A stretch of DNA of 64,000 nucleotides from a virus (IMGVR_UViG_3300026549_000032:1-64000), one strand, 5' to 3'. Counted from the stretch's first letter, positions 11,182-16,703 are shown. Made by a program: numbers and translations. Notes: generated by a model from the letters alone, not told the origin.

Positions 11182-11844
11182 ATGGAACTTTTAAGAGGAG
11201 TGGTGTACAAATATACTAACATAATAAACAATAAAGTGTACATCGGCCAGACAATAGATGAAGAAAAACGAAAAGAGAAATGGCGAGAGATAAACAGTCC
11301 TTATGCGGGATCATATATTAATCGAGCCAGAGAGAAATATGGAATAGCTTCATTCTCTTATGAAGTAATTATAGAAATATTTGACGAGGATAGAGCCAGT
11401 TTAAAAAAGAGACTCAATATCCTAGAAATCAAATACATCGCTGAGTATAGAAGTAGCGAAGAAGAATTTGGATATAACTTAACAACTGGCGGCGGAGCTT
11501 CTGGCCGAAAGCAAATAGTAACAAATGAGGCTCGTAAAAATATGAGTATAGCTCAAAAAGGGATTAAAAAGCCAATGTCCGAAGAAGGTAAAAGGAATAT
11601 AAGCGAAGCGCATAAAGGAAAAAAGAGTCCATGGCGATATAAAAAAGTTTGTCAACTTGATAAAGAAACTGGAGAACTAATAAAAATCTGGGATTCCCTA
11701 ACAGAAGCTGCTGCATCTTTCGGAGATAATCGCGTGAGCAATCTAACATATGCAATAAGGGGCAAATATCGCCACAAATTTTATCGAGGATATAAATGGG
11801 TTTATTATGAAGATTTTTCTAAAAAGAATAGCGAAAAGGGATAA
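11182..11844 (+). CDS. Free-standing GIY-YIG homing endonuclease with NUMOD3 x2 and NUMOD1 DNA-binding modules
   Basis: 'GVVYKYTNIINNKVYIGQT', 'GYNLTTGG', 'EARKNMSIAQKG'/'EGKRNISEAHKG', 'KKVCQLDKETGELIKIWDSLTEAA'. Confidence 0.9.
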   Translation: MELLRGVVYKYTNIINNKVYIGQTIDEEKRKEKWREINSPYAGSYINRAREKYGIASFSYEVIIEIFDEDRASLKKRLNILEIKYIAEYRSSEEEFGYNLTTGGGASGRKQIVTNEARKNMSIAQKGIKKPMSEEGKRNISEAHKGKKSPWRYKKVCQLDKETGELIKIWDSLTEAAASFGDNRVSNLTYAIRGKYRHKFYRGYKWVYYEDFSKKNSEKG

Positions 11845-12268
11845 ATATACAATTGGGAAACTTTACATTGATGGAGAATATTTCTCAGATTGCATCGAAG
11901 ATAAAGATCGTGGTCTTACTCAGAATATGTCCCTCGAAGAGATCAAGAAGATCAAAATTCCCAATGAGACTGCTATCCCGACCGGGACTTATAAGATCAC
12001 ACTCAATGTGGTAAGTCCTAAGTTTAGTAAATATAATGCCTATAAATATATTGGCGGAAGACTTCCTCGACTACTTGATGTTCCTGGATATAGTGGTGTT
12101 CTCATGCATATTGGAAACACAGCAGAGCACTCCAGCGGCTGCCTGATAGTAGGACAAAATACGCAAGTAGGAAAAGTCTTGAATAGTACAGTCACTTTCA
12201 AGAAATTATACGCCAAACTACAAGAGGCAAATAAAAGAGGTGAAGTAATAACAATAACAATTGAATAG
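11807..12268 (+). CDS. DUF5675 family protein (L,D-transpeptidase-like His/Cys motif; putative cell-wall enzyme)
   Basis: 'YTIGKLYIDG', 'ETAIPTGTY', 'LPRLLDVPGYSGVLMHIGNTAEHSSGCLIVG'. Confidence 0.85.
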   Translation: MKIFLKRIAKRDKYTIGKLYIDGEYFSDCIEDKDRGLTQNMSLEEIKKIKIPNETAIPTGTYKITLNVVSPKFSKYNAYKYIGGRLPRLLDVPGYSGVLMHIGNTAEHSSGCLIVGQNTQVGKVLNSTVTFKKLYAKLQEANKRGEVITITIE

Positions 12269-12278
12269 AAAAATAAAA

Positions 12279-12330
12279 TCCCATGACTCAGGGGAACAAC
12301 GGCCTGAAACCATTCGTTTGGATCATGGGA
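12279..12330. other. Branched stem-loop after DUF5675 (possible minus-strand terminator)
   Basis: TCCCATGA (12279-86) / TCATGGGA (12323-30) encloses TCAGG/CCTGA and CCA/TGG stems. The A-rich tract on its left reads as a U-tract on the minus strand. Confidence 0.45.
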
Positions 12331-12395
12331 ACCGAAACAAAGAAAACGCGGACAGGAAAAGAGGAAAATCCTATTAATGAAAAGAAATAGTAGGA

Positions 12396-12430
12396 ATGGA
12401 TATGATTGAATTTTATGTCCGTTTATTTTT
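12396..12430 (+). terminator. Terminator-like hairpin
   Basis: ATGGATATGA (12396-405) / TTATGTCCGT (12413-22), 10 bp with 3 G-U pairs, followed by TTATTTTT. Confidence 0.45.
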
Positions 12431-12447
12431 GAATCGATTAAGAGAAT

Positions 12448-12694
12448 TATTTTCCATAACTAAACTTTATTTAAAGTGTCTGGATACAAAAATCCTAGTG
12501 CCTATGACCACTTGTGAAAGCCGTTATAGGTTTATGGACACAGATCATGAACCCGAATTTTCGCGTGGTCGGTCTATGACCGAGAACCCTCGACCTTCGC
12601 ATGGGGAAGCAAGCCCCAGCTTGGTCTCGTTCGCTTCGCTCTTCGGTTCTTCACTAAGTCTGATCCTAGATAAGTGATTTTGTTATGGAAAATA
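12448..12694 (+). ncRNA. Putative structured non-coding RNA (or ssDNA element) upstream of the helicase-like gene
   Basis: A perfect 13-bp closing inverted repeat TATTTTCCATAAC/GTTATGGAAAATA encloses several hairpins that need G-U pairs on the + strand, including one with a GNRA (GTGA) tetraloop. Confidence 0.5.
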
Positions 12695-12805
12695 TTTATG
12701 AACCCCGTGAACCCGGAATATACTTATTCTTAGAGATTACAGTAAAAATCTGTAATTATTGGTTCAAGGCTCGGGTGAACCCAGGCGCGAAGAAACGGGT
12801 TCACC
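12548..12805. repeat. Clustered TGAACCC motif (iteron-like) and terminal 9-bp hairpin
   Basis: TGAACCC at 12548, 12699, 12708 and 12776, inverted at 12797-12803, and a partial inverted GGTTCA at 12761. GGTGAACCC/GGGTTCACC forms a stem ending 32 nt before the helicase ATG. Confidence 0.7.
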
Positions 12806-12837
12806 ATAAAACAATTAAAAATTAAATAAAGTTTAGT

Positions 12838-14961
12838 ATGAATGAGAAATTAATTGTACCAAAAGGAATACGGTACATTAGTCAATGGCAAGACTTTAAA
12901 TTGGATGATTATCCACATATCATGAACAAACAAATACCAGGATGCGGATTTACTGAATGGTGTCTAGTTAACGGAGAAAATATTATTCTCTGTTCTCCCA
13001 GACGAATCTTACTACAGAACAAGTTTGATCAACATCAAGGGGAAGTTTTTCTAGTAATGAATAACCAAGAAGAAAAATTTTCACCAGATAAGGATCTTTC
13101 TAGGGGATTAAATATTGAAAATTCTCTCAAGAAAAAAGATTTGTCATTACCAGAAAATGTTAAAACAGAAATAAATTTAGTGGATTTGGTAGATGAAACA
13201 GAGGAAGTAGATAAAAATGTTTACCAAGAATTGAGGAATAATATTCGTGAGTATATTATTTCTCGAAAAATTAGTAAACAGCCTTGTAAAATTCTCGTTA
13301 CTTACGACTCATTTGGGTTAGTAAAAGATATACTCTATTCTTTAGGGTATTTCTTTGAGTTTAGGGTGATTATAGATGAGTTTCAGTCAATTTTCGTAGA
13401 CAGTAGATTTAAACCCTCCACAGAAATAAAATTTTTATCTTACTTGGATGGGGTACAGAAAGTTTGTTATGTAAGTGCAACTCCTATGATGAAAGAGTAT
13501 CTTTCAATGATGCCTGAGTTTAAAGATCTACCGTACTATGAACTAGATTGGGAAACAGATCAACCTGAGAGAATATCTAAACCAAATCTAAAAGTTAGAT
13601 ATACAAGATCTGTAACAGAGGCCGCTAAAAATATAATAATTCCCTATAAGGAAGGTAAATTTGACGTTAAATATGTTAAACGACAAGGTCAACCACAGGC
13701 TATTGAATCAAAAGAGGCTGTTATATATGTTAATTCAGTTAATAACATCATCAGTATAATAAAAAAATTTGATTTGAAGCCGGAAGAAGTTAATATCCTC
13801 TGTAGTAATACAATAGATAATGCAAATAAGGTAAAAAACAAGCTTGGACAAGGGTTTTCTATAGGCCGAGTTCCTCTTAGGGGAGAACAGCATAAGATGT
13901 TTACTTTTTGTACTCGTACAGTCTATCTTGGAGCAGATTTCTATTCAACAACGGCCAGGACTTTTATTATCTCTGATGCAAATATAGAGACTCTTGCAGT
14001 TGATATTTCTCTCGACTTACCACAAATTCTTGGTAGACAGAGGTTGGAGGATAATCCTTGGAAAAATTCAGCTGAGTTTTACTATAAGCCACTCGCTCTA
14101 AAGAATAGAACTGATAGAGAGGAGTTTGACAATTTAATAGCAACTAAGGATGCAACAACTCAAGGTGCTATTAAGAATTATGAGACTATTGCTGAGAACA
14201 GTCCTGATACCCTTGATGTGTTAATAGGAGGTTATGCTGATTTAATAAAAGTAAATAACTATAGAAAGGATTATCTTTCTCTAAAACCTATCCATGAAGA
14301 GTATGTAGATTCTGTTGGTAATGTTATTAAACGAACTATTTGGATCCCTACTGTTAACAATCTTGTTCGCGTATCTGAGCTCAGGGCATTTGAAATACAA
14401 CAGGTTGATTACAAAGATAGGTTTAATGTATTTAGTAATTTAGATAGTTCTCTTGGTTTAGATACTGAGAATCAAGAGGTTAGAGATTTTCTTCTCGATT
14501 ATCAAAACCTAACCAAGCTTTATGATAAACTAAAGTATCTTTGTAATCTCGATTTTCAGGGAAAGTTAACATCAATACTTTTAGCTCAGGTTTCAGAAAA
14601 GCATTTTCAAGAATATTTCACTATCCTAGGATCTGAGAGAATCCGAGCGTTAGGGTATGATGTATCTTTACTTAATAGAGAACTTGGTTTATTGACTTTT
14701 GATACAACAGAGCTTCTAGAAAAAGTATATAGTACTTTCCTTCCAGGAAATAGATATACATCTGTAGATATTAAACAAATGTTATCAATTATTTACGATG
14801 AAGTTGGTTATGGTAAAACTCCTATAGCAACTGACCTAGAAGATTGGTTTGAAATAAAACGAGTTCAAATTAATACAAAGGTATCAAGGGGAGTTTATAA
14901 GAGAGATAAAGGATTTGAAATTATTTCAAAGAAAGGGGCTCGGAATGATTTATCTTATTAG
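12838..14961 (+). CDS. SF2 (DExD/H-box) helicase-like protein with a degenerate Walker A and a C-terminal putative DNA-binding domain
   Basis: Motif I-like 'IPGCGFTE', Ia 'ILCSPRRIL', II 'IIDEFQS', III 'YVSATP', IV 'AVIYVNSV', V 'FCTRTVYLGADF', VI 'LPQILGRQR'. Confidence 0.8.
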   Translation: MNEKLIVPKGIRYISQWQDFKLDDYPHIMNKQIPGCGFTEWCLVNGENIILCSPRRILLQNKFDQHQGEVFLVMNNQEEKFSPDKDLSRGLNIENSLKKKDLSLPENVKTEINLVDLVDETEEVDKNVYQELRNNIREYIISRKISKQPCKILVTYDSFGLVKDILYSLGYFFEFRVIIDEFQSIFVDSRFKPSTEIKFLSYLDGVQKVCYVSATPMMKEYLSMMPEFKDLPYYELDWETDQPERISKPNLKVRYTRSVTEAAKNIIIPYKEGKFDVKYVKRQGQPQAIESKEAVIYVNSVNNIISIIKKFDLKPEEVNILCSNTIDNANKVKNKLGQGFSIGRVPLRGEQHKMFTFCTRTVYLGADFYSTTARTFIISDANIETLAVDISLDLPQILGRQRLEDNPWKNSAEFYYKPLALKNRTDREEFDNLIATKDATTQGAIKNYETIAENSPDTLDVLIGGYADLIKVNNYRKDYLSLKPIHEEYVDSVGNVIKRTIWIPTVNNLVRVSELRAFEIQQVDYKDRFNVFSNLDSSLGLDTENQEVRDFLLDYQNLTKLYDKLKYLCNLDFQGKLTSILLAQVSEKHFQEYFTILGSERIRALGYDVSLLNRELGLLTFDTTELLEKVYSTFLPGNRYTSVDIKQMLSIIYDEVGYGKTPIATDLEDWFEIKRVQINTKVSRGVYKRDKGFEIISKKGARNDLSY

Positions 14962-15793
14962 GTCTTCAGCTTACGACGAAACTAACGATATCTTCTCGTT
15001 TATATTAAAAATTGGATATACTAAAGATGGTGTCGCGGCTCAAAAGAGATTTGAGAACTATAATGGTCATAATCCAACCTGTAAGGTATTATTTAAAATA
15101 CCGAATGGAACTAGAAGACAGGAAGGCGCGCTTCATGAATACTTTAAGGAATTTCGTATATACAATAGAGAATGGTACGAATATAGAGAAGAGATTGTTG
15201 AGTTTTTCAAAACACATACTACAGCAGAATCTTTAGATTCCTCTTTTTCAGAATATAAGTTTAAATATGAGAGGAAGTCAGATACTTTTATTAAAGTTAA
15301 TAAGTTTAAGAATTTTCTTAAAGAGTTAGAAGATTCAGAGCTTAAATCTGCACTATCTGATTATTTAAAGATTTCACCTTATAAAAGATTGAAATTATTA
15401 TATGATCTTTTTAAGGCTGGTCTTGTTACTGAAGCACTCTTAGAAAATATTCCTGAAAATAACTTCAGAGATTATTTTAATATTCTTGGTCCAGATCGAA
15501 TAAAAGCTTGTGGATATAATATTACAGTTCTTAATCGAGAACTTGGTATTAAGTCTTTTGATAGTCAATCATTAGTAGAAGATATAAATAATTATTTCAC
15601 AGTTGGTGAGAGATATTCTCTATCCGACGTTAAGTCGAACCTACAGACTATTTATAAAAACTGTGGTTATGATAAATCTCCCCAAGCCAAAGATCTCTCT
15701 GAATGGTTTGAACTTCAGGATCTTACTTTCAATGTAAAAGTTGATGGTACTATAAAACGAACTAGAGGATATCGAATCCTCTCCAAGAAATAA
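14945..15793 (+). CDS. GIY-YIG superfamily (T5orf172/MUG113-like) nuclease fused to the same C-terminal domain as the upstream helicase
   Basis: 'MIYLI...LKIGYT.....KRFENY..HNP...LF.......EGALHEYF......REWY'. The C-terminal ~155 aa align with the helicase C-terminus. ATG 14945 is preferred over the TTG at 14915. Confidence 0.75.
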   Translation: MIYLIRSSAYDETNDIFSFILKIGYTKDGVAAQKRFENYNGHNPTCKVLFKIPNGTRRQEGALHEYFKEFRIYNREWYEYREEIVEFFKTHTTAESLDSSFSEYKFKYERKSDTFIKVNKFKNFLKELEDSELKSALSDYLKISPYKRLKLLYDLFKAGLVTEALLENIPENNFRDYFNILGPDRIKACGYNITVLNRELGIKSFDSQSLVEDINNYFTVGERYSLSDVKSNLQTIYKNCGYDKSPQAKDLSEWFELQDLTFNVKVDGTIKRTRGYRILSKK

Positions 15794-15872
15794 CACTTTG
15801 GGCTTTTAATGGAAACTACCATCTGCGCCCTTATTAACGGAAAGAAATTCTCCGAAACATAATAATAAAAAT

Positions 15873-15919
15873 AAAGGAAAATCCTTTAGTGATAATTCAA
15901 CACTACTGGATTTTCTTTT
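15873..15919 (+). other. Long stem-loop before the tail chaperone gene (terminator or 5' leader)
   Basis: AAAGGAAAATCC..TAGTG / CACTA..GGATTTTCTTTT. Confidence 0.55.
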
Positions 15920-15938
15920 CATCAAATTTATAAACTAT

Positions 15939-16703
15939 ATGAACATAGATGTATCACTTTTGCCGAGCGGGGGCTATGGATATGGCTTTCCCAGCATTAA
16001 TGTCAACCCTATGGTATTTCAAGACATAGTCGACTATACGACTAACTTGCCTGAGGATGATCCGCTTGGCCGTTATTTTTTCGACGTGGAAATGCTCAAA
16101 CAAGACGACCCGAGAGTGGTTGATCTCTACGTCATGGATATTGATTTCTTGATTTTCTATAAGAAACTCATCACGGTTTCTGAAGACCTTTCCTATCAGA
16201 TTGAGGTTAGGTGTCCTCATTGTGGAAAACCAATCAAGAAGACTATATCCTTTGAGCGTGATATTCACTTCAAACAGATTGACCCTAAAATTATGGAAGG
16301 GGCCAAGATAAACTTAGGGGGACATACTTACGATACGATTGTCCCTACCTGGAATGATTTCATTAAAGTATTCCAACTCTACCTTAGAATTCGAAAGGTA
16401 CATGATCTGAAAATGATTAAGACCATCTCCCTCATCAAGGACTGGGATTATGCTAAGAACCAGATAGAGCACGATATCTTAGAGGCAACTCATTCAGATA
16501 TTTCTCTCTTAATGGCTCTCCGTGAACTCTACTTTGATAGGGTAGATCCAATAATAGTTTATTGTCCTGAATGTAATAAAGACCTGGAACCGGGCGAAGA
16601 AAGGAGGAGTGTGGCAGTGAGTGTAGATTCTCTCATTGTCGATTTCTTTCGAGACCTCTATATCAATTGCCCAATTGATGGATCTAAAATTTTATTTAAA
16701 TAA
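15939..16703 (+). CDS. Tail/baseplate hub assembly chaperone (T4 gp26-like)
   Basis: 'LPSGGYGY', 'DIDFLIFY', two CxxC motifs (CPHC, CPEC) and a C-terminal 'DFF'. It sits two genes before the tape measure gene. Confidence 0.75.
   Translation: MNIDVSLLPSGGYGYGFPSINVNPMVFQDIVDYTTNLPEDDPLGRYFFDVEMLKQDDPRVVDLYVMDIDFLIFYKKLITVSEDLSYQIEVRCPHCGKPIKKTISFERDIHFKQIDPKIMEGAKINLGGHTYDTIVPTWNDFIKVFQLYLRIRKVHDLKMIKTISLIKDWDYAKNQIEHDILEATHSDISLLMALRELYFDRVDPIIVYCPECNKDLEPGEERRSVAVSVDSLIVDFFRDLYINCPIDGSKILFK

Follow-up and report, generated by a model that had tools for sequence, protein, structure and literature searches.

Why should a helicase and a nuclease that are encoded side by side in a phage tail operon end in one and the same domain? 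The question is raised by a block of DNA (positions 12269-15938) in IMGVR_UViG_3300026549_000032:1-64000, hereafter the window. The window covers the opening 64 kb of an IMG/VR virus record of 218,381 bp whose completeness is rated at 60%; close copies of the window DNA are found in bovine and sheep gut or rumen metagenomes of 14 studies. A first-pass annotation, made from the sequence alone, had noticed in the block a non-coding stretch followed by a superfamily 2 (SF2) helicase gene and a GIY-YIG nuclease gene with paralogous C-termini, and had read the three as one mobile or replication cassette, in which a shared domain takes both enzymes to the same site. Its observations were correct in every part, and its interpretation is partly supported. 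On balance, we favour the view that the phage has several copies of a module, and that the block is one of these slots with a homing-nuclease cassette added to it.

Alleles with and without the nuclease

The block is a discrete 3.67-kb unit in a long one-strand structural operon and, as had been claimed, is AT-richer than its surroundings (GC content 0.26-0.34 across 12800-15800, against 0.37-0.45 in the flanks), with the open reading frames (ORFs) as described. The last ~156 residues of the helicase and of the nuclease are 42% identical (E 1e-36). The nuclease ORF spans 14915-15793, with a likely ATG start at 14945, and its product matches Pfam T5orf172 (PF10544) at 35 bits (cut-off 20) over profile positions 1-93 of 101, and MUG113 (PF13455) at 31.5 bits (cut-off 22.3); candidate catalytic-residue motifs (IYLI, IGYT, QKRF, EWYEY) are visible in it. 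The 282-residue protein is identical to database protein P0269 and is found exactly in 4 contigs of up to 384 kb. A genome-wide T5orf172 search overlooked this very gene, and its negatives are thus unreliable.

The distribution of the nuclease is sporadic. It is found at 11 of 51 tail-operon helicase loci and at about 30 of 80 helicase loci overall; relative L010 has it, and relative L006 (helicase 73% identical) has none, window positions 14934-15840 being replaced there by 188 nucleotides (nt) and the alignment resuming from 15841 at 90% identity. Among relatives, the tail-operon slot holds a helicase only at 39 loci, a helicase with nuclease at 11, no helicase within 7 kb at 11 and a clean empty site at one. 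This empty site (L158), which the first-pass annotation had proposed to look for, has the DUF5675 gene directly beside the 254-aa gene, 112 nt from the end of the one to the other, and lacks precisely the block interval. Its record, G001, holds no helicase in its 109 kb, with an overlap limited to window 7-61.5 kb; as it covers only the structural region of the window, it proves one empty slot and not the loss of the family. The notion of a single unit made of structured element, helicase and nuclease holds in part: the parts do travel together, but most copies, that of L006 among them, lack the nuclease, which is dispensable to the module.

Three plus/minus allele pairs (L026/L054, L037/L035 and L061/L021), all of them from a sister clade and not from the lineage of the window, show a discrete insert with co-converted flanks. 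By blastn, L054 equals L026 plus ~1.03 kb, made up of a new tail and a T5orf172 N-domain, at the junction between helicase core and tail. L021 and L061 have flanks 99% identical and helicases only 71% identical, and in L021 the T5orf172 N-domain continues into the final 860 nt of the resident helicase gene, as found in L061; the same before/after pattern is seen in L035/L037 and in L078/L022. Sliding identity is 97-100% in the flanks, and the divergent block has its left edge 200-400 nt upstream of the helicase ATG, in the leader, and its right edge at the resident tail. Nuclease N-domains may be 100% identical and yet carry tails only 36-69% identical. In a tree of the tails, those of nucleases are interleaved with those of helicases, with at least 9 switches forced by the starred branches, and several nuclease tails are identical or near-identical to the helicase tail at the same locus in nuclease-less genomes. 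The window nuclease tail pairs with that of L010, and the L016 nuclease tail groups with the window helicase tail (support 89/66). In the sister genomes the nuclease tail mostly matches the displaced helicase allele and not the adjoining helicase; the shared domain need not mean that the two enzymes work together at one site, as had been proposed earlier. These natural before/after alleles would be those of a homing cassette that brings along a spare copy of the invaded gene and retains the tail of its victim.

Some fusions extend further: the 475-residue nucleases of L021:5022-6446 and L040:6043-7467 are joined to the last ~300 residues of the helicase (from about residue 400), beyond the ~160-residue tail, and L040 has two nuclease genes in tandem behind one helicase.

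We propose that the downstream gene encodes a free-standing homing-type endonuclease of the T5orf172 family, and that what spreads would be a replacement helicase together with the 3' portion of the leader before it and the T5orf172 N-domain behind it. Of the two crossovers, the left would lie in the conserved 5' leader and the right in the tail-coding sequence of the helicase, so that the invaded helicase would be replaced by the incoming one and its own tail fused in frame behind the nuclease domain. The captured tail would probably lend the nuclease the specificity of the displaced helicase allele, and nuclease-less modules would then be cut and converted. In the window the capture event must be old if this holds, since identity between its two tails is down to 42%, and since the nuclease, with an orthologue in L010, has been lost from L006. 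The nuclease tail retains the invariant or near-invariant columns of helicase tails (alignment A3: F95, Y114, F132 and 14 more), the nuclease tails of the window and L010 have diverged to 42-51% identity with the reading frame uninterrupted, and a complete tail ends all 16 nuclease genes examined. Intactness and conserved columns at such divergence suggest that the tail is in use, and that it has been kept under selection since its capture.

Several points weigh against this account. No nuclease-less relative of the window has a helicase tail close to the window nuclease tail, so that tail capture in the window itself relies on analogy with the sister clade and on the tree. Something other than targeting could be the reason why the nuclease tail is kept, and the left boundary of the block may be due to ordinary recombination of diverged strains and not to nuclease-driven conversion. 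Finally, two bovine metatranscriptome runs hold the region as contigs at a flank-like depth (in X3, 7-11 vs 3-6), which is uninformative on transcript, start and strand; runs X19 and X20 hold diverged relatives of the region.

Free-standing GIY-YIG homing endonucleases of T4-like phages (Seg, Mob) are encoded by small, AT-rich, sporadic genes lying between or just after conserved genes, and spread by double-strand-break repair with co-conversion of flanking markers. They differ from the present case by having DNA-binding modules of their own (NUMOD or IENR-type, as in the gene at 11182-11844 described below) and no fusion to a piece of the target-gene product. Mobile ORFs of fungal mitochondria, known from atp6 of Allomyces macrogynus and from atp6, atp9, cox2 and nad3 of Glomus, consist of a foreign replacement C-terminus plus a LAGLIDADG or GIY-YIG endonuclease ORF, which can be in frame with the host gene, and the native C-terminus, displaced downstream, is closest to the gene of an ORF-less relative (PMC3630166). 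L054 compared with L026, and L021 with L061, show the same geometry. The host, however, is here a phage helicase that occupies several paralogous slots, which opens paralogues, and not alleles alone, to the cassette; co-conversion takes in the whole helicase and part of the leader; and the tail that is displaced becomes part of the nuclease and stays intact for long, without decay.

The other close system is Odn (Gp88), the origin-directed nuclease of vibriophage ICP1, in which a T5orf172 domain is combined with a DNA-binding domain copied from RepA of PLE; this domain is 42% identical to PLE RepA_N, cutting of the RepA site is proven, and the chimera stems from recombination with homing-endonuclease-like genes, its specificity domain having been repeatedly swapped (PMC8263062). 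Both nucleases join T5orf172 to a domain homologous to that of a replication-type protein, at 42% identity in both cases. The binding domain is N-terminal in Odn, whereas here the putative binding domain is a C-terminal tail; the donor was the parasite of the phage for Odn, and is the phage's own multi-copy helicase here; and cleavage at the partner's site, proven for Odn, is here proposed from sequence. Given the proven case of Odn, borrowed targeting would be the likeliest use of the nuclease tail. The idea that one targeting domain is shared with a replication-type protein has thus a precedent, although the sharing is explained first by an insertion that keeps the resident tail. Our finding is partly explained by these two known principles, mobile-ORF insertion and Odn-type borrowed specificity, and it links the mitochondrial mechanism to the latter in a new host, the jumbo phages.

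The resident helicase module

In the helicase, SF2 motifs Ia, II (DEFQ), III (SAT), V and VI (QxxGRQR) are invariant in alignment A2, and Foldseek matches its AlphaFold model to Brr2, RecQ (RecQ1), WRN, BLM and Hjm (E ~1e-8), in agreement with the original assignment. The Walker A pattern GxGK[ST] is lacking: motif I reads PGCG[FYA]T in 19 of 19 aligned helicases, without the catalytic lysine, and an invariant lysine (K31; residues 31-40 correspond to window 12928-12957) lies four residues ahead of this motif. By its motifs and fold the protein belongs to SF2, with a putative ATPase activity. Its sequence gave no match in Pfam, PHROGs, NCBIfam, PADLOC or PDB sequence searches. A megablast comparison with GenBank phages gave no match either. 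When clustered at 90% identity the family yields at least 4985 clusters, and at 50% identity 2590, most of them from contigs of 200-430 kb; a 99%-identical helicase was found on a 424-kb contig, and the public record for one member reads 'ATP-dependent RNA helicase'. In relatives of ~940 residues, mostly assigned to Bacteroidota, helicase and tail are followed by a BT4734-like AEP primase domain and PriCT_1, which links the family to DNA replication; these primase-fused bacterial relatives have the same lysine-less motif I and the preceding invariant lysine. Introns or inteins in helicase genes, considered on account of ~3-kb matches, were rejected by tblastn, the surplus length being the tail of the downstream nuclease.

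The tail, modelled alone with AlphaFold (predicted local distance difference test, pLDDT, 91.7), consists of a helical sub-domain followed by H-b-H-H-b-b. VIA-align gave Z scores of 4.0-5.2, which are weak and not decisive, to the winged helices RFX-DBD, NrS-1 C-terminus, MCM8 WH and the P4 origin-binding domain, and Foldseek of the tail alone against PDB gave no match at E <= 0.001. On topology and these Z scores, the end of the tail may be a winged-helix-like domain with putative nucleic-acid binding. An SF2 or replicative motor with a C-terminal recognition domain is also the plan of UL9-type origin-binding helicases and of P4 alpha/NrS-1 primase-helicases, and the tail has weak structural similarity to 1ka8 and 6k9c. 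The present proteins differ in that no sequence relationship was found (Pfam, PDB), in that the Walker A lysine is missing, and in that origin binding is putative.

Paralogues, for which a search had been suggested, are present in the genome. The window's own 218-kb record encodes four full-length helicases, 35-47% identical, at 12.8, 71.6, 111.7 and 164.4 kb, and only the copy at 12.8 kb has a nuclease beside it. A complete 400,901-bp relative with terminal repeats (G003) has six, at 39.7, 112.0, 199.5, 258.2, 327.3 and 383.9 kb, and a 367,385-bp genome, 93% complete (G006), has seven, at 22.2, 75.3, 132.5, 199.7, 241.1, 295.6 and 351.5 kb, which makes 4-7 copies per genome, ~40-90 kb apart. 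The coefficient of variation of the gaps is 0.165 in the former and 0.174 in the latter (P = 3e-4 and 9e-5 under random placement, by simulation). Paralogues from the same genome group together, the seven copies of the 367-kb genome in a single clade, and the 241-kb copy of that genome occupies the same tail-operon slot as the window copy: the slots are kept, and their content is homogenised or replaced within the lineage. This helicase family is very large and has no name. Its members are without the P-loop lysine, come in several copies per genome, and lie at intervals of the regularity that one would expect of replication origins. A resident module would be made of a promoter, a folded 5' leader RNA of ~450 nt and the SF2 helicase ending in a winged-helix-like domain, and jumbo-phage relatives would keep 4-7 of them at regular intervals, homogenised per lineage.

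The stretch ahead of the helicase gene (12269-12837, 569 nt) is the longest non-coding one of the window if a 93-residue ORF (12396-12677) is discounted; in L006, 85% identical, only the first 49 residues of this ORF are alike, with a frameshift after them. Its folding energy is -164 kcal/mol, against -129.7 +/- 6.2 for dinucleotide shuffles (z = -5.56, 0 of 100 shuffles as good), which bears out the dense palindromes of the first-pass annotation. Identity between the leader and that of L006 is 85% over 534 nt, with indels that break the reading frame. That other copies have an upstream element too is also borne out: in IMG/VR loci, 70 of the 73 helicase genes come after an ORF-free gap (no ORF >=70 residues) about 400-1290 nt long, and in the two near-complete genomes all 13 helicase copies come after one of 194 to >1000 nt, with structure and covariation in those that follow.

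In the three-way junction of the window leader (4 sequences), 100% of the cells are paired and in 12 of 22 pairs both partners are changed (a level that none of 500 shuffles reached, with 31-47% pairing in slid controls); matches of its covariance model, R1, are confined to the window subclade. Leaders of the sister clade are 70-79% identical in DNA between different slots of one genome, and RNAalifold gives them a 14-bp closing helix spanning ~550 alignment columns, with an inner multi-helix domain. Over 53 pairs, 98% of the cells are paired, and 9 pairs (44 cells) have both sides changed, with 0 of 500 shuffles as high and slid controls 40-53% paired. G-U or U-G occupies 43 cells and A-C 7, and this excess of G-U means that it is the sense strand that folds, hence RNA. 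The upstream element would thus be the 5' leader RNA of the helicase transcript, as judged from base-pairing patterns and from a promoter-like motif at its 5' end, and not an iteron-type DNA origin. Just ahead of the start codon, where the window has the stem GGGTGAACCC/GGGTTCACC, L160, L018 and L161 have stems of other sequence that are again complementary (by eye). Leaders are modular and change fast between subclades. Rfam 15 (including group I/II introns, ROOL, GOLLD and HEARO) gave nothing at E <= 1 in 11800-16200 except a chance snoRNA match inside the helicase gene, nor at E <= 0.1 upstream of the helicases at 8 further loci; this adds a long structured RNA leader with covariation support, outside every Rfam family.

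The putative promoter motif is a weak variant of the phage-wide AAAGCCTTATATATG, which is strongly enriched in intergenic DNA: 18 of its 42 matches in the own genome fall within the 8.7% of the sequence that is ORF-free, 7-90 nt upstream of genes. The consensus is also found in sister-clade loci, where a variant ends at the start of the leader's closing helix. It is unlike sigma-70 or Bacteroidota promoters; examples in the own record (G000:C1) are at 111196(-), 113791(-), 114181(-), 114721(-), 126494(+), 164400(+) and 211061(+).

Other features of the leaders were noted by the way. Those of the window and sister clades share, by eye, a GC hairpin whose loop is UNCG-like and after which comes UGAAUA; a single RNA core for both clades was set aside, since the R1 model matches within the window subclade only. 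Scanning IMG/VR for leader motifs gave no match. The leaders of the own-genome paralogues at 71.6 and 164.4 kb have in common a GC-rich block of ~106 nt (71% identity, E 5e-7; G000:C1 ~73765-73900, L013, and ~163965-164120, L015), with nested stems, a GGCC-UUCG-GGCC-type hairpin and no Rfam match. The gap upstream of the paralogue at 111655-113709 (G000:C1:113790-114180, L014) holds a 76-residue ORF with two hydrophobic, transmembrane helices between two promoter-like motifs, and no recognisable structured element. Two independent assemblies (L161:1-212, L162:1-218) break ~215 nt 5' of the helicase start, inside the leader, perhaps because the assembler meets the leaders of the various slots as repeats.

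Possible roles of the module and of the nuclease tail

Two roles of the resident module seem to us equally possible, each of them tentatively, and they are not exclusive. In the first, which is compatible with a homing nuclease, each element would be an origin, or an origin transcript or primer, and the helicase its cognate initiator, whose winged-helix tail binds the site; 4-7 evenly placed modules would give a genome of ~400 kb multiple origins, and the nuclease would be an Odn-like, origin-directed enzyme. The even spacing of the 6 and 7 copies in the two near-complete genomes argues for it, and so do the Bacteroidota fusions of helicase and tail to a primase (on account of these distant relatives, replication initiation would be the first guess), the weak likeness (Z 4-5) of the tail to the P4 origin-binding domain, the NrS-1 C-terminus and MCM8 WH, and the Odn precedent. 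BT4734-like proteins form a family of AEP primases, and for primase-helicases it has been proposed that the winged helix at the C-terminus reads the origin (PMC5862659). No DnaB_C was found over the Pfam cut-off in G003 and G006, a weak point in favour, as a like search missed the known T5orf172 gene of G000. The wobble pattern and the long-range covarying helices, on the other hand, fit a sense-strand RNA and not duplex iterons; the tail-operon slot is empty in some relatives; and homogenised paralogues sit badly with one private site per initiator. An origin of the type with iterons and a DNA unwinding element was rejected, since the TGAACCC repeats of the window are stem halves, unconserved in L006, and neither a GC-skew turn nor a gene-strand switch was found at the modules (window and record are on one strand over 1-69 kb); an RNA-primed origin is unaffected by this test. 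A tail-specific site in the leader was rejected too. Tail identity correlates weakly with that of the leader's last 130 nt (partial r 0.29), and the pair L021/L090 is discordant (core 91%, tail 67%, leader 3' end 90%), which argues against the shared site that had been placed in the adjacent element, as far as these last 130 nt are concerned.

In the second role, the leader would be a cis-regulatory or stable non-coding RNA working with the helicase, through translational autoregulation or with the helicase as a remodeller of RNA or R-loops, and the nuclease an unrelated hitch-hiker. This is in keeping with a covarying sense-strand structure directly 5' of nearly every helicase copy, with the covarying hairpin ~30 nt before the start codon, with Ski2/Brr2-type RNA helicases being among the closest folds besides RecQ, and with the name given to the family member in the public record. 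RNA stability or action in trans is purely supposed, however, the leader is modular and quickly changing (the R1 matches being those of the window subclade only), the copy at 111655-113709 has its two-helix ORF upstream in place of a recognisable element, and the primase fusions indicate work on DNA.

One might speculate, with more doubt, that rumen or gut jumbo phages of ~360-400 kb replicate from 6-7 regular origins, each with a promoter-driven folded origin RNA and a paralogous initiator helicase. It is similarly doubtful that this initiator would combine a winged-helix reader with an SF2 motor whose ATP site is rewired, and that T5orf172 cassettes would make use of the reader domains to overwrite modules and would thereby homogenise the paralogues. 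We found no phage description of a multi-replicon architecture with private initiators in the literature searched. If the spacing does reflect replication, multi-origin viral replication would be directly testable in uncultured phages by read-depth profiling.

As for the nuclease, it is rather unlikely that it acts as a weapon between phages, using the tail of a rival's helicase to destroy the rival's modules in co-infection, for exclusion and not for homing. The match of its tail to the same-locus allele of other genomes and not to its neighbour, the rapid swapping of tails and the destruction of PLE by Odn would all suit such a weapon; in the before/after alleles, however, the locus has been converted, as it would be by homing, and the two explanations differ only in the selected effect, which makes them inseparable by sequence. 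Least probable, and in our opinion improbable, is that the rear half of the nuclease is a functionless scar of the invaded helicase, in frame by chance: this is the usual fate of the native C-terminus in mitochondrial mobile-ORF insertions, and recent insertions in the sister clade would look alike whether the tail is used or not, but a neutral remnant should show frameshifts or stops at a divergence such as that of the window and L010 tails, whose frame is open, whose conserved columns are kept and whose fold is confidently modelled (pLDDT 91.7), as is the completeness of the tail in every nuclease gene examined at odds with decay. A homing cassette that keeps and uses the tail of the displaced helicase remains the reading we prefer.

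Features and borders of the locus

Features of the block at window positions 12269-15938
Feature	Position	Strand	Basis
5' boundary hairpin, immediately 3' of the DUF5675 stop codon	12269-12345 (stem 12279-12330)	+	closed stem in minimum free energy (MFE) and centroid folds
Promoter-like motif TCCTATTAATG, weak variant of AAAGCCTTATATATG	12365-12381 (variant at 12370)	+	putative promoter role
Structured leader ahead of the helicase gene, non-coding, ~455 nt	12382-12837	+	folding z-score, conservation in L006
Three-way junction in the leader	12476-12541	+	22 base pairs, covariation
Hairpin ~30 nt 5' of the helicase start codon	12773-12805	+	stem GGGTGAACCC/GGGTTCACC
SF2 helicase-like protein, 707 aa, deviant motif I (K31 ... 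P34-G-C-G-F-T-E40)	12838-14961	+	sequence motifs, structure model
C-terminal domain of the helicase: helical and winged-helix-like sub-domains	14458-14937 (aa 541-700)	+	AlphaFold pLDDT 91.7
Predicted T5orf172 (GIY-YIG superfamily) nuclease, 282 aa	14945-15793	+	Pfam; 17-nt overlap with the helicase stop
C-terminal domain of the nuclease, paralogous to that of the helicase	15329-15790	+	42% identity over 156 aa, E 1e-36; alignment A3
3' spacer with terminator-like stem, precedes the 254-aa gene	15794-15938	+	MFE stem ~15872-15917

The block is bordered by the DUF5675 gene (11807-12268) on its 5' side and by the 254-aa gene (15939-16703) on its 3' side, the latter being followed by a gene for a ~1960-aa Phage_lysozyme2 protein. 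In L006, a hairpin of ~70 nt like that at window 12279-12345 borders the leader and helicase unit as a direct repeat (L006:5455-5520 and L006:8195-8265; blastn aligns 33 nt at 94%, and the whole hairpin is recognised by eye). This repeat may be an insertion footprint or an excision substrate, and would then hint at how the unit enters or leaves.

A second, unrelated homing endonuclease gene lies at 11182-11844 (GIY-YIG plus NUMOD3; PHROG 314, E 1e-26) and overlaps the start of the DUF5675 gene. It is absent from L006, which has two small ORFs there instead, and in the contig of a relative in run X19 its position is taken by 542 different letters.

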